Assembly (NCBI RefSeq): GCF_016433145.1
Contig: NC_058131.1
Location: 48,447,795 to 48,511,794, forward strand
DNA from: Gracilinanus agilis
Taxonomy: Eukaryota
Direction of reading: 5' to 3'
DNA length: 64,000 bases
Both the position numbers and the translations under genes were made by a program. The notes below the pieces were generated by a model. The model had not been told where the DNA came from. It saw only the letters and a list, made by a program, of their open reading frames with translations, and searched no databases. Shown here piece after piece: positions 40,962 to 61,877 of this stretch. Positions within the stretch are counted from its first letter, which is position 1; each line of letters opens with the position of its first letter.

Positions 40962-41060
40962 CTCCGCCGGTCTCCGGGCTCCGGCCTCCAGCCCAGCGTC
41001 TCGGACGACTAGCGCTCCCCTCCCCACCCGGCCTCGACCTCGCACCACGTGCGCGCGCTT
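40962..41060 (-). other. UTP4: UTP4 non-coding exon 1 (5' end approximate)
   Basis: Consensus donor GGAG|GTAAGT at 40962/40961 inside the CpG island. The next exon begins 2 nt before the ATG, so an upstream non-coding exon is required. Confidence 0.7.
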
Positions 41061-41100
41061 TGACCCCGGAAGTAGTCGTCAGCCCCACGGAGCCGGAAGT

Positions 41101-41196
41101 GCGCAGACAGTGTTAGCGGCGGCGGACGGCGGCGGCGGGAGGTTCGGTTGTCGCCCGTTGGCCGCGAGGCGCCGCGTTCGGCGGCCGCCATTGCAG
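41101..41196 (+). other. CHTF8: CHTF8/DERPC non-coding exon 1 (5' end approximate)
   Basis: Donor TTGCAG|GTCAGG at 41196/41197, downstream of the tandem CCGGAAGT sites. Confidence 0.6.
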
Positions 41197-44100
41197 GTCA
41201 GGCCCCGGGCGGGAGTGCGGGAGGGGGAGCGGAAGGGGCCCGGGAGGCGAGGGCCGGGAATCGGCGGGAGGGCGAGAAGGAGGGAGCTGACGGCCCAGGG
41301 AGGAAGGACGGCGCGGGAAGAAGAATGGCGGGCTCGGGGAGGGCGGCGGGAGGGGTTGGGCCTGAGAGGAGGGAGCGGGAGCGAGCGCGGGCGGTCGGGC
41401 GGGGGAGGGAGAAGGGAGCGAGAGCGAGCGCGGGCGGGCGGCCGGAGGCGAGATAGCGGAGCCGGAGTTGGGGCGGGAGTGGAGTAGGGCGGACTCCAGT
41501 CCTTGGGAGCGAGAAGGGGATCGGAGGCGGTAGCACGCGGGGCCGGGCATTTGTGGGCCGAGGCAGGCGCATGGAGGGGACCGAGGCCGCGGCAGAGGCA
41601 AAGGTTGGCCCGGGGGCTGACGCTGGGCGGGCGAGAGAGCGGCACGTGGGTCGGGGGAAGATGAGTATGTGGGGGCAGGGGCGGACTGGAGTGGAAGCCC
41701 GGCGGTGTGGTCGAGGAGGAGGAAGGAATATGGTAGGGACTGGGAACCTGGATGGAGAAGGGATCCAGGAAGTGGAAGGGGACCATTTGGAGGGATCCCA
41801 GGAAGAGGAAGAAGAGAGGGAGGAGAGTGGACTCAGGAAGTGGAGGGAAAGGGAGGAGACGGGGGCGGAGACGGGGGCGGGGGAGCAGCGGGCTGGTGGA
41901 GCGGGAACCTCTAGGTTAGAGTGGGGTGCGGGGCCGGGATCCAATATGGAGGGGGAGGGGTGGAGAGAAGGTAGGCCAGAGAGGGTGGACCCTAGGAGGG
42001 TGAATAGGGACTCGTTAGAGAAGAAATCCTTCTCCGAGGAGACTTAAGGGTTGGGGAGTAATGCAGGAAAGGAACCTTGAGAGAGGAAAAGAGGGCCAAG
42101 GACTCAGGGTTTGTCTGAGTAGTAGAGGATTTGGACAAATGCTGGAGTAAACTCAGATCGACAGAAGCAAGTTTGCCAGCAAGCATCTATCTGCAAATGC
42201 CAGTAGTTGATCGAGTGGAGGAGCGGGATCCTAAATATCCCTGAAGTGTGCTGTGAAAGTAACACGTGTATACATAGTTTCCATACACATTTTTGAAACC
42301 ATCCCTCCCTGATGAAAAGTTCAGAAACATTCAGTTCTACATGCACATCACAGCCCTTAATGGGGGGAGGGGGGACAGGGTCTGTCCATCCATACAAGAA
42401 GCATGGCTAGAACTCCCATATAAGCCTGTCAGTAGACAGGATGCCTTTTGATCCTCAGGCAGCCTGGTTCCAGTCACCATACCATGAAAACACTTAATAA
42501 AAATATTTCATCTCCTTTTCATCTGTATTTTTAAAATCACATTAATTGTTCGTTTTTGGAGGAAAACACAGAAAATTTCACATTCAGAATAGAAATTGTC
42601 CATCCCACCCTTATTTTGTGAAGCAAACTGGTGGTAAACCAATTTTCTTTTGCTCCTGTCACTTCTTAGGGGCCATCTAATCTCTAACCCCTTCATTTTA
42701 CTACTGAGGAAGCTGAGACACATCCCACCTACCCCCAAATTAAGTAACTTTTACAAGGTTACGTGGGTAGGAAGATGAAAAGGTGGGATTAAAGCCTAAA
42801 CCCTCTGACTAAATCCAGCACTCTTCCGTCCATTTGTATCATGTTCGGAAGCTACTTTGAACATGGTACCCATTAAAATGAAATAATTGTAAAGCTGTCA
42901 GCAAAGTGCCTTGCATATAGTAAGCACTAATTGTTAGCTATTCTTATTTTAAGGAAATTTCTAGAGTAGTACAGAAAGCTATTAAGACTAATTTAACCTG
43001 GTTAAATGTTAATTCTTTCCATACTATAAAACTGGCACTAGATACATTCTCAGCCAAGGTTTTGTATCATGAACTTTGTAGGGAATGTTTTGGGAAGAGT
43101 TAAAAAAATTAACTTTTAAAAATTAAATAATTGAGATTTAAAGCTGGTATTAAGAAAAGGGAAGCCTAAAATCACAGTGAATTGAAGGATCATTTGAATG
43201 AGTGAAATATCTACAAACTTTCTTTTTTTAATTTTTGGCTTTTGACAGTTACATAAAACCATTGACTAGGAGTTAAGTAGTTCTTCAGGCTTTATGGATA
43301 GTACCTTTTTCTCCAGAGAATTCTTATTAAGTAAGTATATAATAATCTTTTTGACATGAGCTTCATTTTATTTTTTAGTACTCATCGTCAAAATTAGAGG
43401 TCTGAAGTTTAGTGAGACTAAGTTACTTGCCTAAAATTAAAGGTAACCAATAAACCAGTCTCATTCATTATTTAAGTCTTATCTTGTCCTAAGAAAGAAA
43501 AGCATGTATTTTAGATTGAAAGTTTCAGTCTTTGGGAATATGCTAGTGTGAAACCAGTTTCTAGGATAGCCCCTTTCCTAAAGATTTTTTTAATGAAATA
43601 TGCAGTTTTTCAGGATCTAAAGTACCAAGAAGGGTTCAGTATTTTAGCAGTTAGGAACTACAGCTAGGTCCTGATTAGTGTAAAGAATGAATCTCCTAAA
43701 GTGATAGCATATATTCAAATTCACAGTATTTGAAATTATTATGTAAAATATTGTGTAGGATTTTTTCCTCAGCCAACTGAAATCCTTGTGAAAATTGGTT
43801 AATCCTAATTGGAAATTAATTCCTCACAGTCACATTCTTGCAAACTTTTTTGTTCCTTTCCCACAACATAGTATCTTGTCTTCCCTGCAGTGCCTTAGGT
43901 GCTCAATCAGTAGTTTATGAATGAATATCATTAGGATAAAGTTGTTTATAAAGCATATTGATATTTAAATATTAGAAGTAAAGTTACAGAGAAATAAAAA
44001 AGTATCATTTTCTTCAAAGTATAAATCCAATCATTAACCTTACCCAATACTCCCCAAACCTTTTTTCCTTTTTAAAACGGCAGTTTTTCCAACTACCTCT

Positions 44101-47300: not shown

Positions 47301-47740
47301 GAATGTTTAGAATGAGGTTATGGGCATTTTCTTGTCATAGCTTTTGTTGGAGATATTTTGTTTTTTAAAATAATCCATGGGTGGGAGCAGCTGGGTAGCT
47401 CAGTGGATTAAGCCAGACCTAGAGACCAGAGGTCATAGGGTGCAAATCTGACCTCAGACAGTTACTAGCTATGTGGCCCTAGGGAAGTCACTTAACCCCA
47501 ATTGTCTAGCTCTTAGGCAGTATTGATTCTAAGACTGAAGGTACGGGTGGGTGTATGTGTTTGGGAAAGAATTAATGGAGCTTATATCATATCCCCTGAA
47601 AAAAGCTATCTCAAAGTTGTTATTTAAAAAAAAATTCTTCCTGTTTAGCAAAGAAGAAACCATTGAGCTGACCTTATATAATTGTTTTTCCTTTCTCTTC
47701 TTAGCTTGTCTTCAGTTTGCTTTTCTAATCGAAAAAGCTG

Positions 47741-48760
47741 ATGGTGCAAATTGTCGTTTCCAGGTGAGTGAATACATCTTGGTACCTTTTTTTCATTGTA
47801 GGGTGAATAGTTGGGGTTGGATAGGTTTGATGTTTTTCTGAAAGAGCTAAGATCCCAGAGTGCATCTGTGCAGATCCTTGCATTTCAACCTTTAGTTCAG
47901 TGCCTAACACTACCCACTTTCCAATAAACTTGATCAAAATGAATGGCTGAGCCTTTTATGGGTGGTATACTGCCCATCCTTCACCCCTCAAAAATATTGT
48001 AACCACCAGCCCTTTGCTTGCAGTGCTGGGGCTGGAGGCTTGGCAGAATGGGTGCTGATGGAGCTACAGGGGGAGATCGAGGCTCGCTACAGCACTGGAT
48101 TAGCTGGAAACCTCCTGGGAGACCTACATTACACCACCGAGGTGAGGGGGCTTTCCTTACCTGCCTAACGCCTCAGAAAACAAGCCACAGTAAGGTGGCC
48201 CTCCCAGAACCCGGAGTGGGGACTGCCCTAAGGTTTGTTATGTGAGGTCTGACTAATGTCCTCAGGAATCCAGTCATGCTCCTCCCCTACCTCTGAAACA
48301 TCAGAGAAGTTTTACTTTGGGGTAACTGGAGAGGTTGTATTTCTAAAGATGGAAATTGTATTTTTCTTGGTGACTGGGAAATGCACAGGGGGAGGGTTAG
48401 CAAATCTCAGTCATGATGCAGTGAGAAATGCCACGGAGTAAGGTGAAAGACCTGAACAGATTGATGGGGATGCCTGAGAGTTTTATATTGCTCTGAGCCT
48501 CAGGTATCTTGTTTTTGTTTTTGTTTTCCTTAAAGGGAATTCCTGTGCTGATTGTGGGGCATCATATCCTTTATGGGAAAATTATCCGTTTGGAGAAGCC
48601 ATTTGCTGTCCTGGTAAAAAGTGGTTCTGGGGAACAGGAATGTGATGAAAGTGGCAGACAGACAGGAACTCGGTACCTAGTGAAAGCACTAATAAAGAAC
48701 AAGATTCTCTTCAAAACTCGCCCAAAACCCATTATCACCAACGTTCCCAAGAAAGTATGA
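47741..48760 (+). CDS. CHTF8: Chromosome transmission fidelity protein 8 (Ctf18-RFC subunit), spliced CDS, 121 aa
   Basis: Coding exons 47741-47763 (MVQIVVS; AG|gtgagt), 48024-48141 ([40 protein letters not shown]; cag, gtgagg) and 48536-48760 ([15 protein letters not shown]...[19 protein letters not shown]). Total 366 nt, matching the recalled human length of 121 aa. The exon-2 acceptor is probably at 47704/47705. Confidence 0.96.
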
Positions 48761-50769
48761 AAGAACCAAGGATTTTTTCTAGAGAGCGGCCAACTCCTTG
48801 GACTCGTGCCCCATTCCCACCCCGAGGACGGATAGACGGTACTCTTGGTTCACCAATGGCTCCTGTTTTGAATGCAGGCAACACAATGGGGGTAAACCCT
48901 GATCCTTTTCTAATAGCCAGTGTTCTTGGTGGAAATCTGACTCGGTTCCCAACTGGCCCCCTTGCCAGAAATCCAGCTCCTTTTCCAAAGCCATCTGGCT
49001 CATTGGCCTCATGTCCGCCTTCCTTCCCAGCTGGTGCCCGTGACTCAAACATGGTTCCTTTTCCAAGGGGGATGAATCCGCCGAGCGCAAACTCAGTTCC
49101 TTTCCCAAGGTCAGGTGGCCCACTTGGCTCAGGTCTAAATCCTAGAGCAGGTATTGGCACTGGAACTGGTCCTATGTCTAACCCTAGACCAAGTGGGCTC
49201 ACCAACACAGGTCCTATGCCTAATCCTAGGCCAGGTGGGCTCCCCAATGCAGGCCCTATGTCTAACCCTAGGGCAAGTGGTCTTTTGGGTGCAGGTCTTG
49301 ATCCCAGAGCAGGTGGTCTGGGCTCAGGTCCTGGTCCTGACCTGAGGACAGCAGGTTCACTAGGCACAGGTCTTGGCCCAAACCTAAGGACTGGTGGCAT
49401 TATGGGCACAGGCTCTGGTCCTGACCCTAGAGGAAGTGGGTTCTTGAATAATACTGGCCCTGGTCCCAATTCTAGAATGGGTGGCCTGGGTGCAGGCGGC
49501 CTGGGAACAGGTGGCCTGGGCATGAGTGGTCTGGGAGCAGGCAGTGTTGGCGCAGGCGGTATTGGCACAGGCGGTCTGGGCTCAGGCGGCTTGGGCGCAG
49601 GTGGCCTTGGAGCAGGTGGCCTGGGTGCAGGTGGCCTTGGAGCGGGTGGCCTGGGTGCAGGACCAGGTCTCAACCTAAGGACCAGTGGTCTCTCAAACAC
49701 AGGGCATGTCCCTGATCCCAGGGCAAGTGGATTTCTGGGCACAGGCCTTGGTCCTAACTCTAGAGTTGGTGGCCTAGGTGCTGGTACAGGTCCTGGTCTT
49801 GGTCCTAACCCAAGAGCCGGTGTCCCAGGACCAGGCCCTGGTCTTAACCCAAGAGTAGGCCTGGGAACAGGCCAGGGCCCTAATTTGGATCCCAGGGCAA
49901 GTGCTCTCTTGGGATCAGGGGCTGGTCCCAATTTGCGAGCTGCTGGTCTCATGGGCACAGGATCTGGGCTTGATTTGAGAACATCTGGATCTCTAGGTAT
50001 GGATCTTGCTCCCATTTTAAGAGCAGCTGGCCTTCTTGGAGCAAATTCAGCCCCTTTCTCACAATCATCTGGAAATATGGGTCCAAATCCATCTTCCATT
50101 ACAAGAGCAACAGGCCCTATAGGCCCCAACCCAGGTCCTGGCTCTAGAATAGTTGGCCTTCCAGGTCCAAATTCCTCTCCTATGCCAAGGGCTACTGGTC
50201 CCTTAGGTCCTAATTCAGCTCCTTTCTCAAGGCCAACTGGTCCCATAGGTGTAAACTCTGCTCCCTTTCCAAGGGGGACAAATCCTGCAGGCTTGAACCC
50301 AGCTACGTTTTCCCAGGCCACCAGCTCACTCAATTCAAACCCACCTACCTTTCCACGTTCTACTGGTCTTCAGGCTACCAGTACAGCAATTTTTCCAAGG
50401 TCATCTGGCCCCTTGGGCCCAAACTCAGCTAACTTCCCAAGATCAGTTGGACTGCAAGGCCCAAGTCCAGCTACTTTCCCAAGATCCACTGGCCCACTAG
50501 GTCCTAGTCAAGTCCCATTCCCCAGGTCTGCTGCTGGTTCGCTAGGTCCCACACCAGCAAGTGCTCCAGGCATAAACCCAGCTCCTTTTCCAAGGCCATC
50601 TGGTCCCCTGGGTATAAACCCATCTTTTCCTAGGGTCAATGGCCCCATATTAAAGACTGTGGTACCATTTCCTAGGAGTGGAAGCCTTTCCGGCCCCAGC
50701 CCAACTGCTTTTCCTAGACCAGGAGGCCCATTGGCCGCAATGTACTCAAATGGAATGCTGCCACCCTAG
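48757..50769 (+). CDS. DERPC: DERPC proline- and glycine-rich nuclear protein, 670 aa, intronless ORF in the CHTF8 last exon
   Basis: 2013-nt ORF from [19 protein letters not shown] to [15 protein letters not shown]. Both termini and the internal [17 protein letters not shown] match recalled human DERPC. The ATG (48757-59) overlaps the CHTF8 TGA (48758-60). Confidence 0.92.
49480..49659 (+). repeat. Coding minisatellite, 12 x 15 nt, encoding (GGLGA)-type pentapeptides
   Basis: ggtggcctgggtgca-like units; translation [35 protein letters not shown] then (GGLGA)5. Confidence 0.95.
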
Positions 50770-51527
50770 AGATTGCCACCCTCCCGCCTAGGCTACATTG
50801 GCTATAAGGTACCATGGCTCTGGGCAAGATGGAAAGAGCAGTGACCTGAAGGCCAGACTGTGGCTTGACTTGATGGCCAGCCATTTCTTTCCACGGCTCA
50901 TTTCTCCAATGAAGATGGAATCTTCGTTTTGCTTGTGAGACAAGGACTCTGGCAGGCAAGCAAGCCCAAAGCCTAAGGATGGGGAGAAGACTCCCAGTGT
51001 CCTCGAGCCTGTGGTGCTTTCTCACTGCTTTGTGCCGAGTTCTCTCTTTCTTACTCATTTCTTGGATTGTTCTCCTGGACTTTTCCTCAGGGATGCATAG
51101 GCCTGCCAGTCCCAGCTCATTCTATACTACCATCTTTTCCCTACCAGAGAAACCCAGGTAGCTGCTTTTGTTAATTGTGTTCCAGTTTCAAACATTACTC
51201 AGTAACTTTGTAAAGAGCAGCTCTGACTGAATAGTCCTTTCCAGTTCTAAGTAAAGCTTATTTCTTTATGCCACAAACTGGACATCGGCCACCTCTGGAA
51301 TTCATGGGAGGCTAAAGTTGTGAAGCAGCCTCTCGCCTGCCCTTCTTGCTACTGTTACTCCCAATCAAAGAACCTCAAGATTTTGAATTGATGTTGGCTC
51401 TGGGACCTGGGGGTGGGGGGATGGGAGGTAAAGGGGAGGGGGAGGGGAATAATCACTGCTTTTCAGCCTGCTATGAAGGCATTGTTGGTGTTTCATTCTA
51501 CAATATATCATTTCTTACTGTTTCTTT

Positions 51528-51533
51528 AATAAA
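51528..51533 (+). terminator. Likely CHTF8/DERPC polyadenylation signal
   Basis: First AATAAA I can find downstream of the CHTF8 stop, followed by GT/T-rich sequence. Confidence 0.65.
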
Positions 51534-52194
51534 TGGGATGGGAGGTTGCTGATTTTGAGCATTTTGTTACCTGGCCCGGGGGGAAGGAACCTCACCCGTG
51601 AGTTTTTGTTTTAGCTGAAGTTGGCCATAAGCCTACATGTTCTTCTGTAAGCTTGTCTAGCTGCTTTTGCTACTGCAGGTATAAGAAAGCTTAAGCTTGT
51701 GTTCCCAGCTAGAGCTTTCTTCTCTGCCTGATCATTCACCAAGGATTTTGACCCAAATCACATGATTTAGGATCCCACATGTACATAACATCTTTAATGT
51801 TGTCCAGAGCTAAATGCATAATCACCTTGGACAGTTTTTCTCACTTAAATTGAGTTTCTGTTGGAAATTACCTGGGAAAGTGGTTGGATGGCAAATAAAC
51901 CAGAGAGAGATGGAAATTACATTTCAATTCTTATTCACTTTAAGAGTCAAGCAGTGTTGAGTGTAGCAAACTACTTGGGGAAACCTTATTTATTGGTGCT
52001 TTTTAAGAGATGATGGTCATGCTCTGTGATATTGAGTGGTATATTATCTGATATACCTGTGGCTTGGAGACCTATCTCAGCTTTGGGGTTTGGCATTCCC
52101 AGGTGGACACCTAAGTTTTCACATCAAATAGCAAGAAGGGGATGCTTGAGAGCCCTGAGAAACACCAAAACTACTGATCTTGTGTGCAAATTTC

Positions 52195-54495: not shown

Positions 54496-55419
54496 TCACA
54501 CCTCAGCAAATGCCAAGCTGTATTGCTCAGGCTTTCGTCCACAACGTCGGGCAATGATGGCCAAGTATAGCATAAGGAGCGCTACCCAATAGCAGGCATA
54601 TAAGATGGCCCCAGAGACTAGGAAAGCCAGCTCTGTCTCACTGAATAGGTCCTGGCAATAAGCTGTGTAGGCCAGTCCTCCCAAAAGGACCGCGACCCAA
54701 ATGGACACGGGGATGAGGCCAATAAAATTCACCACGATAGTTTTTCTGCCTGAAGTGCCCCACCCAGACTTGTTGATGGTAGCAATGGCAAAGATCTTGG
54801 CTGGCAGGAGACTGGACATGTAAAGGAGAGAGTAAAGGGACATGAATATCATTTCTGCATTACCTCGAAGGAAGCAAGCGTAAGTAGCCTTGATGATGCC
54901 CACAAGCTGCACTGTTAGCAAAAAGAGGAGGATGTTCCAGACACGGCCCCGATAGAACAACTGGATAACAGTAGCAATAAGAAAGAAGGGAAAGAAACCT
55001 GTCACCACAGACTCGTACGTCATCCAGAGGTGGTGCTTATGGAACCATAGGGAATTGTAGAGCCACTCCCGGAAGTAAGACTTGCTCCAACGGGTCTGTT
55101 GGTTGAGCCAACGGAGGTACTTTGTAGGGGTCTCTGTGAGGCACTTTGAACGTGCAGTATACTTAGTCTGGTAGCCAAGGCTCAAAACTCGATTGGTAAG
55201 ATGCCGGTCATCCCCAAAGCTACACTTGCTGCCCAGAAATTTCTGGTGGTACCAATCTTCTAGAAACTGCTGAAGAAGGGTATTCCGATACATGCCTAAG
55301 GGCCCACTTATGCACTGAACACAGCCAAAATAGGACTGGCAGGCCCTTTCCACATTGAAGGCCATCCAGTACCGAACACTACTCAAGAAAGAGATCCAGG
55401 AGTCATATTTGTTGAGAAT
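54496..55419 (-). CDS. HAS3: HAS3 last coding exon ([28 protein letters not shown]...AFAEV*)
   Basis: tag acceptor at 55420-55422, TGA at 54498-54496. Confidence 0.97.
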
Positions 55420-58400
55420 CTAAAAAGAAATCAGACAACACTGTTAGCTTCATCAACACACTCTCCATTTCTCTGCCAACTTGAGACAACACACAAAAGC
55501 ATCTGGATCTTTCTGTTATTCAGGGGTTCTCTAATCTAAAGCATCTTTTAAGTCTGTCACATGGAACAGCATAAGGAAAAAAGAAAACTGAACAGCATAT
55601 TGCTAAAGGGCTACTTTGGTTAAGGAGAATTTCTAGCAGCCAGTTTTGGATTGGCAAGTGAAGGAAAATTTGAGTTTAGCAGGAAATAATCAAGTTCCTA
55701 GGCACCCAATTCCAATTTTGCACTGCTGTTTGCCGCCATTTGCTAACTTAAACTGTGATTCAACACCTGAATCTTATGATAGTAAATCGTGGTTGTAACA
55801 GACTAGAAAAGAAAGACTATTCCTTGTGCCTAGAATGTTCTCCCTCCTGGCTTCCTTCAAGTTCTAAATTTTTTTTTTTTACTAACCCTCCTTAATGCTA
55901 GTGTCTTCCCTCTTGATTATCTCATTTATCCTGTCTACATCTTATTTGCACATCATTGTTTACATGTCTCTCCTATTAGATGGTGAGCTTCTATTTTATT
56001 ATGCGTTAAATCCCCAGTACTTCAGTTCAGTACTTGGCACACAATAGGTGTTTAATAAATGTTAATCGCCACACCTCTGCCCAAGAAAGAAGCTTCTCTC
56101 AGCTTTTCATCTCTTGGAAGAGAATCTAAATCCCTAATCCCGTTAACTGAATGGTGGATCCCACAGAGTTTTTTAGTCCCCAAAGAGAATTCTGAATTTC
56201 TTGAAGAGTTAGGACAAGAGAATCCCCCTCTTAAAAAGTAGCCACTAACATTGGAAGACCTGATAGCTTGTCAGGTGGTGCAAATTTTCCCCACTAGAGT
56301 CTTAAGTTCTCCCTATCCAGAGCTTCCAAATCCCATTCTTTTCTCTCCAAAGCAACCCACAAGACACACAGGGGAAGAGGGAAAACTGTTCTCCCTCTTA
56401 GCAATCCCAAGGCTTTACTCTAGGAAGCCACAAAGCCACGCAGCTCACTTTCTGACCACATCAAACTAAAAAGAAGAAATGCCAATAGGCCAGCCCTGGG
56501 AAACCCCTAACTGTATCTTACTTGGACATCTCCCCCGACTCCACCCACTTGAGGATCCTCTTCCAGGACTCGAAGCATCTCCACAGTACATGCTGGATCC
56601 AGCACTGTGTCGGAGTCACACACCTGCCGGAGTAAAGCACACAGTCAGTACCGCTTAGACCTAGACTCCAACTCCAAGAAGACCCTTGGACCATCTACTA
56701 CTTTCTCTCTGCTGTACCATTTTACATTTGGGTGAAGGAGATAGTTTAGGTAAAAGTTATTGGCAATATCTAGTTTCAAATAATTTACCTGATACCATGA
56801 GCAATGGGTAGAGTTGGGGAGCCTCTACCTAGAGAAAGGAGGTAGGGTTTGGGTTCTCGGTTTCACACCAAACTGAGGATGGGAAGAGCCAACTAGCTCC
56901 TAATCAGGAGCCATCTCCAAGGTTATTGGATGGAAGCCTTGAAGAGGGGAGATAAACCCAATATGAGAGCTAGTTTTAGCTCCTGTAATCCAGCCCCAAT
57001 ATAGTTAAAAATTTCACTTATTTGGGGGAACAGGGGTCCAGGAACAAGTCATGTGACAGGTGACTGATCTGCCCAATTAACATCTCAGAACCCAAGGAAA
57101 CTGTCTCGTAACCTCCATTCAGAGTCCAACATTTGAACACATAAAGAGGTTAGAAGGAAAGTCCAATAAATTTGGCAATGCAGGTAAATCATTGAGCATA
57201 GTGCAACCTGAGCAGGACAACAAAGATTTATAGCTACCAAAGTCAATTGCCAAGCTAAAACATCTATATGCAGGGTGAAGCTTAGAGGTTCTAAGGAATT
57301 AAGAACTTTTACTAAGCAAAATTCCAGAGAGAGGCAAAGGTTATCAGGTGGAGGAGTTTCGTAGTAGCTACAGAAGTCCTTAGTAGCTGAGAGACTTGAA
57401 TGTTCTTTTAGATTTTTCCAGAAAAGGTAGCTGTGTAATCTCATGGGAATAATCCGATGATGGCAAAGGGGAAATAAGACCAAGATCAAGAGATTATTTC
57501 TACTCTATCCCAACTTTTTTGCCTTTTATTCTTGGGTTCTACTACTGTGAGAGGGGGACTAGCCAGAGCCACTGAAGAGCAGCTGTCAGAGCCTTCCCTT
57601 GTTATTTCTAAACTGTGCCTGTGACCGAAAGCCACAAACTTCATCTCTAGACATTAAATTTAGTATTCTCAGAATCAATGAAGGAAAAGCATTTATTAAA
57701 TGTTAACTTTGTACAAAGCATAACCTAAGGCACTGGGGATATTAAGAGAGAAGTGGAGTCCCTGCTCTCTGGAAGCTCCCATACTAATGGGAGGTTTCAC
57801 CTGTAAATGAAGAGATGAGGAGAAAGGACCACTTAGGTTACATGAGAGGGCCAGGATCAGGCAAGGGCCAACTAGTCTGGTTCATTTTACCAGTGAGGGA
57901 ATGAGACCAAGGTCCAGGTTAAGTAGGAGCTTACGTGATTTGCTCAAGGTCAAATAGCTCCCTAGAATTCCAAGTTAGATCTATGGTCTAAAAAAACCAT
58001 CATCCTCTACATTTAGGTTCTTAATAAAAAAAACCTATTTATTAGTCTGCCACTTCTGCCTCCTCCCAGCTTTCATTGGGTTCATGTCCTCAGGACCAAA
58101 GACTGAGACTTGCTCAGTCAACAATCCAGTTGCTGACTTGAAACCTAGTCTCTTCAGAAACAAAATGACACACATAGCCCACTCAGTTTCAAATAAGAAA
58201 GCAGGTTAGGCATGAATAGTTCACTGACACTTGCTTAAAGTTTCAAGTCATTCCTTCCAAAATTGGGGGAAAACAACCAAAAAACAGACCTAGAGATAAA
58301 TTTGTAAAATTCCATTTCTGCCAATTCCTAAAAACTTTTATAATACTAGTTAGCATTTATATTTGCTTTTTGTGACAGGCACGGTGCTAAGAGCTTCAGA

Positions 58401-61291
58401 GTCATCTCATGTAATCCTCATTATAACCCTTGAAGTGGGTACTGTTGTTATCCCCATCTTAAAGATGGGGAAACTGAGGCAAACAGGTTAAATGACTTGC
58501 CCTAGGTCATGCATCTAGAGTCAAAGGTCAGATCTCATCTCAGGTCTTCCTGATTCTGGGCCCAATGCTCTACCCAGAAGTATAAGTGCTTACCCTTTTA
58601 TTCTTTGTGTTTCAGTTTGATAGACACACCAATAAAGCATAAGATAGCCAATGAGTGGGTTGTGGGAGCTATATTCCATCTATAGTTTACTTAAAATAAA
58701 AGGAGTCCAGGGTAATCTACACATGGGATAGTCTAGAGCAAGCTAACATCAAGCCCCAAATTCCAGGGGAATCTCCCAAACTAAGATGAGATTCCCAGAA
58801 TCCTCTTCCCTGAACTTTTAGGATATCTTACCCAGGATTCATTCATTCATTCCTACTTTTCCTTATTCTTCAACTTCAAATGATTTCTCTCTGTGTTCCT
58901 ACTGTCGACTTTTCTAAAGGGATTCATTCTTGAATGAATCAGGATATGGATGTAAAAAGCCATTTCTCTGAACTGGATTGTTCTAGAGCTTGTCATGTGG
59001 TTTTCTCTCCCTCTGGGAAGAGACATGAATTGAAATCTTAGGTCAGGCTTAAAAGATGCACCTGCTTCAAGTCTACTTACAAACATCACATCCACAATCC
59101 ATCAGCACCATTTATCCTTTGCTAATTCTGTCTTTAGGTAGTTATCCCACAGCAATAAAATGGAAGGACAACAGACACCTGGACCGGAGCCTCATTGACC
59201 AAAAAAACAAACAGGAAGTGAGATTTCTTTTTAACTACTTTTCTTTAGGGATTGTAGGTTTCAAAGACGGGAGTGACTTTTGTGGACAATAACAACATTG
59301 ACCAATATGTCCTTCTAAAGAAACTTTCAACCAGAGCAACACTATTATTTTTGAAATTCTGGGTTCCTGAGCAAAATAAAAAACAGTTTGCTATAAAGGG
59401 CACCATGATATACCACAATTGTGAACTTTTCCAAACCCAACTTCTCTCCCTGAAATGCAAGGTTTGAGCCCATGAACAGAGAAATTTGAGATTTATGAGA
59501 CAAATATATGTGAAATCCCTACTATGTACCAAAGTCTGTTAGATGAGATCTCCATACCTAATGGACCTTAGATGGCATAGCTTAAGTAACTAATTTATAA
59601 AGAGTAAAGGGTTCTTGATAGAGCCTTCCTTTGGTGATTATTTGCATTATCTAAAACTCTGCATGAGCAAAACCTTGACTATAAATAGTCCATCAAAGGA
59701 GCCAGGACCCTAACATGACTTCTAGCTTATTCTCCAGAGCTCTTCAGCTCCAAATTCCCCAAACTTTATAGGGTCTTTTGCTAGGCTATTTCTATGTGTG
59801 TCACCTTACAGGAAGAGAGTAAGGAACAGTGTTAGATGGTTATGAAAGGCTCTTCTCCCCATTTAATAGGGAAACCCTGGATATTTATCCACTATTCCTT
59901 GAGGTAGGGAGACCTTATGGGCAGTAAGAGACAGGGGAAGAATGTTGGATCTGGATTTAAATTATCATCTTTGCAAATTATTAGCATTTACTAGGTTCCT
60001 GCTGTGTGTTGGACCCTGGGAAGCACTTAACCTGTACGAGAGCCTTAGTTTATCATTATTAGGAGGGAGCTAGACCAGATATTCTCTAAGCTCCCCTCCA
60101 GCTCTAACTTGTTTGATCTTCTGGCCAAGCTACTAGGTGGCACAGGAATAGAGCACTGGACTTGGAGTCAGATGAGTTCAAATCTTCATTCCCATATTTA
60201 CTGGCCATGTGCCCCTAGGCAGGAGATGGAGCCTCAGAATGATAAGGGTTTAAGTAGATATTAGATGATTGTGTGTTGGGGAATAGATAGGATTCATAAT
60301 CTGAGGCAGCTAGGTGGTATAGCTGATAAATCGCTGGCTCTAGAAGACTTGGGTTCAAACCTAATCTTCCCTTAGCTTAGGCAAATCACCAAACCTTTCT
60401 GCCTCAATTTCTTCAACTGTAAAATGAGGACAATAAGAACACCTACTTTCTAGGGTTATGAGACTCAAATGAAAGTCCTTGTAAAGCTCTTAGCACAATG
60501 GCTGGCATATAGCAGGTACTATATAAATGCTTGTTTCTCCTTCCCCTTTCATCCTTCATTTGTTGTCAGACAACAGGGTTAGTCCTCCAGGTTTCCCTAT
60601 ACATCCTTTCCCATCTTCCCCTAATCACCCAAACTGGCTTTTAGGGTTTGCCTCCTTAGTGCTCCCATACCTGAATATAATCCACGGAGTCCCCAAGGGC
60701 TTTGAAGGCCGTGTACATCACTTCCCGTTTGCCACCCCACTTCTGCATGATACAGGAAAAGGTGCTGCCTCGAACCACTTGGTGGACACGGCCCATACCC
60801 TCTTTTAAACTGTCCTCTGACTCGCCCTCTCCCACATCGTGGAAGTTGCTCTGCCAGATGTAGCAGCCTGTGTGTTCTGAACCGAGCACCTCATGGAAGA
60901 TGTCCAGCATGTAAGTGTCCTCCTGCCTGTTGCCGTCCACCACCATCACCACCTTCAGGTTGGGGAAGGAGATGCGCTGTGCAGACCGGAGACACTTGCG
61001 CAGGTAATCAGGGTCCTCCTGGTAGGCAGCAATGCACAGAGCAACCGATGGGGCCAGCTTCAGGGGTCGCCCTCCTCGGCGCATGCGCCGGTGCTCCAAG
61101 AAGGCAAAAAGGCTCTGAATGAGGAGGTGCAGGCCCAGGATGGCGCCATACAGGCCAAAGGAGAGGTAGTGCTTCTCTGTGTGGATGAACTGATAGCCAG
61201 TCACGTATGCAGCCAGGATTCCTCCTAGGACCGCCAGGGCAAAGAGGCTGGTGCCCACTACACGTAGGGCTGTGCTCAAGTGGACTGGCAT
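54496..61291 (-). CDS. HAS3: Hyaluronan synthase 3, whole spliced CDS, 548 aa
   Basis: Coding exons 61291-60671 (621 nt), 56623-56522 (102 nt) and 55419-54496 (924 nt), all phase 0 with GT-AG ends. Contains the DSD and QQTRW glycosyltransferase-2 motifs, and the C-terminus ...YSLAFAEV is HAS3-type. Confidence 0.97.
56522..56623 (-). CDS. HAS3: HAS3 middle coding exon ([34 protein letters not shown])
   Basis: cag acceptor, CAA|gtaag donor, 102 nt. Too short for the ORF track. Confidence 0.96.
60671..61291 (-). CDS. HAS3: HAS3 first coding exon ([24 protein letters not shown]...GDSVDYIQ)
   Basis: Acceptor cag directly precedes the ATG at 61291; CAG|gtatgg donor. The upstream non-coding exon was not located. 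Confidence 0.96.
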
Positions 61292-61322
61292 CTGTTCAAA
61301 GAGAAAATCGGAATAAAAGTCA

Positions 61323-61350
61323 ATATATATATATATATTTTTTTTTTTTT
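61323..61350. repeat. (TA)n plus poly-T microsatellite
   Basis: atatatatatatatattttttttttttt, about 30 nt upstream of the HAS3 ATG-exon acceptor. Confidence 0.9.
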
Positions 61351-61877
61351 CTTTTCCCCTCTTTAACCTGGAGCTTCCCATTTTGCTCAGGCTGAAAGTG
61401 CAACAACCACTCACAGACCAGCTTTTGGTACCGATTGGCACAGGAGCTTTGCTCTGCTGTTTTCAATCAGAGTAGTTTCACCCTTCCTTAGGGAACCTGA
61501 TGGCCCCCATTCCAAGGGGTCTACCATACTGGTGCCAGACTTGATTTGGCCCCTGAAGATCAGAACTCCCCATATGAAACAATCCACCAGCCTCAGCCTC
61601 CCCCAGCAGCAGAGATTACAGATGTGGCCCTGGGTAGACTACAATAAACATTTATTAAGTATTCACTGTGTACCAGGCATTGTGCATAACTCTGGGGGTA
61701 TGAAGTTTCTGCCCTGGAAAGGTTCACAGTCTAACGATGGAGACAAAAGGCAGATATACACAGGGTGTGTGAAAGGTGATCTCAGAAGGAAGGCGCTAGC
61801 AGGGGAAGACGAAGGACAAGGAAAGGCCTCCTGGCAAGTGATAAAAGCATCTCCTGTGTGGGAAGCCCTTTGCTGAC

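Follow-up and report, generated by a model that had tools for sequence, protein, structure and literature searches.

The CHTF8 and DERPC genes overlap by four nucleotides, and this raises the question of how the second protein is made: by ribosomes that end translation of Ctf8 and restart at the overlapping AUG, or from mRNAs in which splicing has broken the CHTF8 reading frame. This bicistronic question was posed in 2015, and we found no experimental answer to it in the openly accessible literature. We analysed the locus in a 64,000-nucleotide stretch of the Gracilinanus agilis genome, referred to as the window, together with protein records from other species. The features of the two genes in the window are as follows.

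41100-41196, plus strand: exon 1, non-coding, common to both genes, within a CpG island; donor GTCAGG at 41197; 5' end placed approximately
47705-47763, plus strand: exon 2, carrying the CHTF8 AUG at 47741; absent from the 1-4 and 1-3-4 isoform records
48024-48141, plus strand: exon 3, 118 nt, the putative switch exon, placed by exon models and protein records
48536-51550, plus strand: exon 4, the shared last exon, with the C-terminal 74 codons of CHTF8 (Pfam Ctf8), the entire DERPC ORF and the 3'UTR, whose end is placed approximately
48757-50769, plus strand: DERPC ORF, 670 aa, Gly/Pro-rich, from ORF computation and record comparison
51528-51533, plus strand: first AATAAA after the CHTF8 stop, likely the shared poly(A) signal, a candidate from sequence

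The CHTF8/DERPC junction

The spliced CHTF8 ORF encodes 121 amino acids and ends at the TGA at 48758-48760 (plus strand), while the DERPC ATG is at 48757-48759 (plus strand), ATGA at 48757-48760 being common to both; ORF computation on the window places the DERPC frame at -1 relative to CHTF8, with an overlap of 4 nt. The preliminary description of this DNA had reported the overlap, a 670-codon ORF running to 50769 and an A at Kozak -3, all of which we confirm. The DERPC AUG has A at both -3 and +4, and the context of the CHTF8 AUG is weak, with C at -3 and G at +4. The exon-4 part of CHTF8 scores 35.6 bits against Ctf8 (PF09696; curated cutoff 22), and among the matches listed the best named Ctf8 is a marsupial protein with 93% identity over this part. 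Exon 1 has a translation that resembles the N-termini of the mouse record P0072 and the ape record P0188, and no ATG occurs in 41060-41196.

Exon 1 is also strongly conserved, 21 of 22 conceptual codons agreeing with P0072, and its 3' end contains GCCGCCATT, which resembles a YY1 site. Tail-to-tail with CHTF8, on the minus strand at 54496-61462, lies what is presumably a hyaluronan synthase gene (HAS3-like); the gene order is likewise utp4-chtf8-has3 in medaka.

The same description had held that CHTF8 mRNA is structurally bicistronic and that no AATAAA lies between the CHTF8 stop and 51528, and the hexamer map bears out the latter. An ATTAAA that had been overlooked is present at 50649, inside the DERPC ORF, and variant hexamers are found at 48749 (AAGAAA), 50571 (CATAAA), 50613 (TATAAA), 50908 (AATGAA), 51250 (AGTAAA) and 51502 (AATATA), but these leave the overall picture unchanged. 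An AATAAA at 48691-48696 lies inside the CHTF8 CDS and, if used, would cut within it. From these positions the last exon of a full CHTF8 mRNA is expected to include the DERPC ORF, and this predicted bicistronic structure is supported by two published sources in their accessible parts: the TOGA2 preprint, in which the CHTF8 end overlaps the DERPC start (Suppl. Fig. 31C,D legend), and Michel 2015, which states for human and mouse RefSeq that both ORFs are on one mRNA (PMC4832365). The AAGAAA at 48749-48754 is a weak variant directly before the CHTF8 stop, and its use could yield a CHTF8-only mRNA.

Conservation of the stop and of the overlap

By itself, the four-letter pattern ATGA is not rare. 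In the window, 27% of TGA triplets on one strand and 25% on the other are preceded by A; across four local CDS pieces the final codon letter is A in 22% of cases, and an ATG lies within 20 nt of 49% of positions. In human, 4368 transcripts of 2214 genes are reported to have a second, overlapping ORF no shorter than 150 nt (accessible text of Gould 2014). The non-random feature is the long, conserved reading frame opening at this site. Junction conservation was judged from protein records rather than from orthologous DNA. At the junction, the decayed copies P0001 and P0005 both give the peptide ...RKYER, and because they have it in common with the third frame of the window the overlap appears to be shared with eutherians; named eutherian DERPC records start with MKEPR. 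These records lend indirect support to the earlier proposal that the junction is kept across therians.

We then considered the CHTF8 side of the junction in 240 Ctf8 homologues (the best 120 of 415 and the best 120 of 202). The stop falls 12 residues after the start of the PKP motif in 237 of these 240 listed homologues, including those of sharks and a sea cucumber; the terminus is PKKV in 204 of them, fish and sharks included, and PKRL in the sea cucumber, and C or W occurs in the last 30 residues of only 13 of 236. Judged from these sequences, the position of the CHTF8 stop is fixed far outside mammals. An AUG in the -1 frame requires a TG-N codon in the Ctf8 frame, and exon 4 has two, Cys36 and the stop; the open DERPC frame begins at 48649, and since there are no other TG-N codons, the stop is the sole site for a DERPC AUG in the open stretch from 48649 that leaves Ctf8 unaltered. 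Conservation of the overlap thus follows from conservation of each protein's end, with no coupling needed, and the ATGA overlap is likely a by-product of the protein-fixed stop of Ctf8.

The Ctf8 C-terminus itself (window 48725-48760) hardly varies in sequence or in length between sea cucumber and mammals (P0063-P0182, P0187-P0306), which suggests that it may be a free-C-terminus binding motif or a degron. A PDB sequence search with mouse Ctf8 returned no match, so the fixed terminus is left here without a structural explanation.

Exon-skipped isoforms

We built four exon models from the window and compared eight protein records with them by alignment, with the following assignments.

P0001, decayed, primate-like copy: best model 1-2-4, score 130 vs 91
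P0191, bat RefSeq: best model 2-4, score 147 vs 103
P0072, mouse: best model 1-4, score 200 vs 131
P0188, ape: best model 1-3-4, score 209 vs 116
P0128, frog: best model 1-4, weak, score 120 vs 81
P0192: best model 1-2-3-4
P0002, seal: best model exons 3-4
P0190: no model fits well

A clear best model was obtained for seven of the eight records and five of these seven skip an exon, the skip records being annotations or, in one case, a decayed copy and not counted reads. The N-terminus of a further ape record, P0307, is of the same 1-4 type as the other 1-4 records. Exon 3 is 118 nt long, not a multiple of three, and skipping it therefore frameshifts CHTF8; the 1-2-4 and 1-4 records, which come from other mammals and whose effects were computed on the window, break the Ctf8 ORF and keep the DERPC ORF whole. 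P0001 contains frameshifts, has Alu-like flanks and runs gapless across the 2-4 junction in a non-Ctf8 frame and on through the entire DERPC region, and because of these properties we infer that it is a retrocopy of an exon-3-skipped mRNA. A search for retrocopies in the animal's own genome, with junction DNA and the exon-4 peptide as queries, matched only the locus itself. The seal record P0002, with exons 3-4 and DERPC-like sequence, was considered as proof of a full-length bicistronic mRNA and was not counted, because its intronless state could not be shown.

Long reads from human cells bear on the same point. In Iso-Seq of WTC11 iPSC, a transcript group carrying DERPC peptides amounts to 117.31 CPM and the CHTF8 group to 111.89 CPM, the transcripts being grouped by computational best ORF in a table that does not give the exon structure of the DERPC group (PMC11544703 Table S1, accessible part). 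We assigned this second group to DERPC by eye, comparing its two peptides with DERPC-like records; one of these two peptides, and two of the three of the Ctf8 group, are MS-detected in that study (PMC11544703), and 5'-truncated reads could inflate the DERPC group. CHTF8 is also listed, in the available part of another study, as alternatively spliced upon knockdown of SPF45, SR140 or CHERP (PMC8594467). The skip-isoform records and the DERPC-only group (117 vs 112 CPM in human cells) argue against a two-ORF form that dominates, with no single-ORF isoform to explain ORF2.

We propose that alternative splicing probably decides which protein is made from each mRNA, CHTF8 and DERPC sharing their first and last exons. 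An mRNA with exons 1-2-3-4 would give Ctf8, with the DERPC ORF as a presumably mostly silent 3'UTR. Skipping of exon 3 (1-2-4) would reduce the CHTF8 AUG to the start of a 12-codon uORF, and skipping of both exons 2 and 3 (1-4) would remove it. Ordinary scanning would then bring the 40S subunit to the DERPC AUG, with three or four short uORFs on the way that it would pass by leakage or by reinitiation; all of these are computed to end at least 76 nt upstream of that AUG. That exons are skipped in this animal as well we infer from the records of other mammals.

Upstream open reading frames and the scanning path

The short uORFs on the path to the DERPC AUG are the following.

48536-48551, plus strand: end of the 12-codon uORF opened by the CHTF8 AUG when exon 3 is skipped, computed on the exon model
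48573-48617, plus strand: uORF of 14 codons, ending 139 nt before the DERPC AUG
48640-48645, plus strand: start-stop uORF, ending 111 nt before the DERPC AUG
48645-48680, plus strand: uORF of 11 codons, ending 76 nt before the DERPC AUG

On the 1-2-4 mRNA the end of the 12-codon uORF lies 16 nt inside the last exon, which leaves 205 nt up to the DERPC AUG; a stop codon in the last exon would escape junction-dependent decay. None of the three short uORFs of exon 4 overlaps the DERPC start. The skipped mRNAs retain three or four upstream AUGs, two of them with G at -3, so scanning on these mRNAs is not free; uORFs of 10-30 codons are described as common and as bypassed via leaky scanning or reinitiation (PMC10275272, accessible part).

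In exon 3, the AUG at 48048 (A at -3, G at +4) opens a 67-codon ORF, 48048-48645 when spliced, in the frame of DERPC, which stops 111 nt before DERPC on exon-3-containing mRNA.

Leaky scanning on the full-length mRNA, with subunits bypassing the weak CHTF8 AUG and reaching DERPC independently of termination, seems very unlikely to us. The C at -3 of the CHTF8 AUG would favour it, but the 2-3-4 mRNA has six AUGs upstream of DERPC, and the one at 48048 is in a strong context and opens a 67-codon ORF, so that leaking subunits would be captured.

Search for elements of translational coupling

The overlap had been proposed to be kept for translational coupling. Under coupled termination-reinitiation, ribosomes ending Ctf8 would restart at the overlapping AUG and account for a meaningful part of the DERPC made, either in addition to the skipped isoforms or in their place. 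The geometry fits, since the AUGA is exactly that of caliciviruses, with stop and start within about 20 nt and out of frame; the DERPC AUG has a favourable A at -3, Ctf8 is just 121 codons long and the junction is retained in eutherian copies. In viruses, the TURBS contains a UGGGA motif, complementary to 18S, about 40-90 nt upstream. The preliminary description had noted none at this distance, and rightly: 48401-48800 holds a single TGGGA, at 48574-48578 (plus strand), which precedes the AUG by 183 nt and is not backed by structure. The 80 nt before the DERPC AUG are almost unstructured (-1.4 kcal/mol), which is in favour of coupling, but in 18 windows of 80 nt the z-score ranged from -1.16 to +1.95, none below -1.2, and no structured element was detected. 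The last 35 residues of Ctf8 are without Asp and thus provide no Asp-rich tail. Third-position identity to P0001 showed no significant excess near the junction, at 7/9 vs 29/50 upstream (p = 0.23), in a synonymous-site test that rests on one decayed copy with partly ambiguous residues.

Published data weigh on both sides, as far as the accessible parts of the sources go. Ribosomes on the CHTF8 3'UTR ORF are reported in human and mouse (Michel 2015, PMC4832365), and in the Mouilleron review altCHTF8 appears with both initiating ribosomes and peptides (PMC4705651), but Ribo-seq is unable to separate the isoforms (Michel 2015), and the footprints need not mean a bicistronic mRNA, because the CDS of separate Ensembl transcripts matches them in human and mouse (Michel 2015, PMC4832365). 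Five cellular mRNAs are reported to be coupled without a TURBS, and reporters for 24 cellular overlaps with the AUG at the terminating ribosome yielded some ORF2 product in 22 cases (Gould 2014); on the other hand, reinitiation after long ORFs usually requires special elements and reaches 3-20% even in viruses (PMC10275272). Around half of the human locus transcripts put the DERPC AUG exactly at the terminating ribosome, and the abundant DERPC-only transcript group in human iPSC long reads, although it counts against coupling, does not prove the full-length mRNA silent. No stop-displacement or cDNA test of DERPC was found in the openly accessible literature. With exon-skipped records, a DERPC-only group, a fixed stop and no coupling element, the proposal that the overlap is kept for coupling is neither supported nor refuted, and we consider coupled supply of DERPC unlikely. 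A more far-reaching version, less likely again, would have therian-wide TURBS-free termination-reinitiation, in the 3'UTR of a cohesion-factor mRNA, yield a nuclear protein of 500-670 aa, with the AUGA as the birth site of a de novo DERPC and skipping as a later, uncoupled second supply.

A dedicated DERPC mRNA, arising from a cryptic 3' splice site or an internal start immediately upstream of the AUG, or a Ctf8-DERPC fusion made by -1 frameshifting, is the least probable of the readings considered. There is an AG at 48750-51, with 67% pyrimidines in the 18 nt upstream vs 78% at the true acceptor, and the DERPC frame is open from 48649; against this, intact DERPC records begin at MKEPR, none of the 240 listed Ctf8 homologues (0/240) runs on into DERPC and no stimulatory structure was found downstream.

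DERPC and its relatives

The DERPC ORF matches no Pfam family. It is 52% identical to the fragment P0004 over 247 aligned columns and has the hallmarks of DERPC, namely the MKEPR N-terminus, the MYxNGMLPP C-terminus and a Gly/Pro-rich body. No full-length DERPC came from the protein collections, mammals included: of 269 candidates for a full-length or non-mammalian DERPC, one was a match, and of the 61 phmmer matches those resembling DERPC were fragmentary or decayed, while the others looked low-complexity. Two chordate clusters came from the Atlas, at 0.89 and not divided into finer taxa. In medaka, chtf8 is annotated at just 1.9-2.3 kb in total, a weak hint against a downstream ORF there.

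A GGLGA-type repeat tract at 49480-49665 extends DERPC to 670 aa relative to eutherian records, the human protein being about 524 aa. DERPC contains 12 FPR, 6 NPR, 4 DPR and 9 PxxxPR motifs. In the accessible part of a CARM1 study, 'CHTF8' is listed with more than 10 methyl-arginines (PMC7069091); the entry likely refers to DERPC, which shares that gene name. An antisense ORF of 503 codons (48735-50246, minus strand) lies opposite DERPC and is likely a shadow of its Gly/Pro codons. Annotations for a monkey and several cetaceans include a 132-aa DERPC isoform with another C-terminus (P0006 cluster, P0183-P0185), which implies an additional intron within the DERPC exon.

Discussion

The locus is orthologous to human and mouse CHTF8/DERPC (altCHTF8) and, as far as the accessible sources describe these, has the same exon layout, shared last exon, overlap and translated 3' ORF; it differs in its 670-aa DERPC with an expanded GGLGA tract, and no difference was found at the junction. 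The overlap, the locus, the ribosomes on the ORF and the bicistronic question are all already in print (Michel 2015; TOGA2 preprint; accessible parts). What is new here is support from several species for exon skipping, together with a simple explanation of why the AUG sits at the stop.

Genes of the LBHD1/C11orf98 type likewise make two unrelated proteins from one locus through splice isoforms with shared 3' exons, whereas the CHTF8 and DERPC ORFs overlap by 4 nt only and a single 118-nt cassette exon would be the switch. Calicivirus VP1/VP2 and influenza B M1/BM2, which use a TURBS, have the same out-of-frame AUGA stop-start geometry, but CHTF8/DERPC has no TURBS motif or structure and has a spliced route to ORF2; in this it is closer to influenza A, which splices for its downstream ORF. 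In CASQ2-type coupling (accessible text of Gould 2014), the AUG of ORF2 is likewise at the stop of ORF1 on a cellular mRNA, but that mechanism requires an Asp-rich ORF1 tail and the Ctf8 tail is basic and Asp-free. MIURF-MIEF1, PYURF-PIGY, ASDURF-ASNSD1 and STREMI-SLC35A4 also combine a small upstream with a long downstream ORF on one mRNA, but are expressed mainly in the two-ORF form. CHTF8/DERPC is not in the main text of the STREMI screen; in the searched part of its 11 supplementary files CHTF8 occurs only in an expression table, and the main text of Vanderperre 2013 has no CHTF8.

Taken together, a splice switch is the most likely explanation and is favoured over translational coupling because of the skip records, the DERPC-only group and separate Ensembl transcripts, the fixed stop, the TG-N codons and the lack of a coupling signature. 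Were coupling true, this would be a rare conserved case in which cells reinitiate downstream of a protein-coding ORF and make a second product of large size. If the splice switch is true, one 118-nt cassette exon would trade a subunit of a cohesion/PCNA loader against an unrelated nuclear protein, and gene-level RNA counts, knockdowns and proteomics labelled 'CHTF8' would mix two genes.
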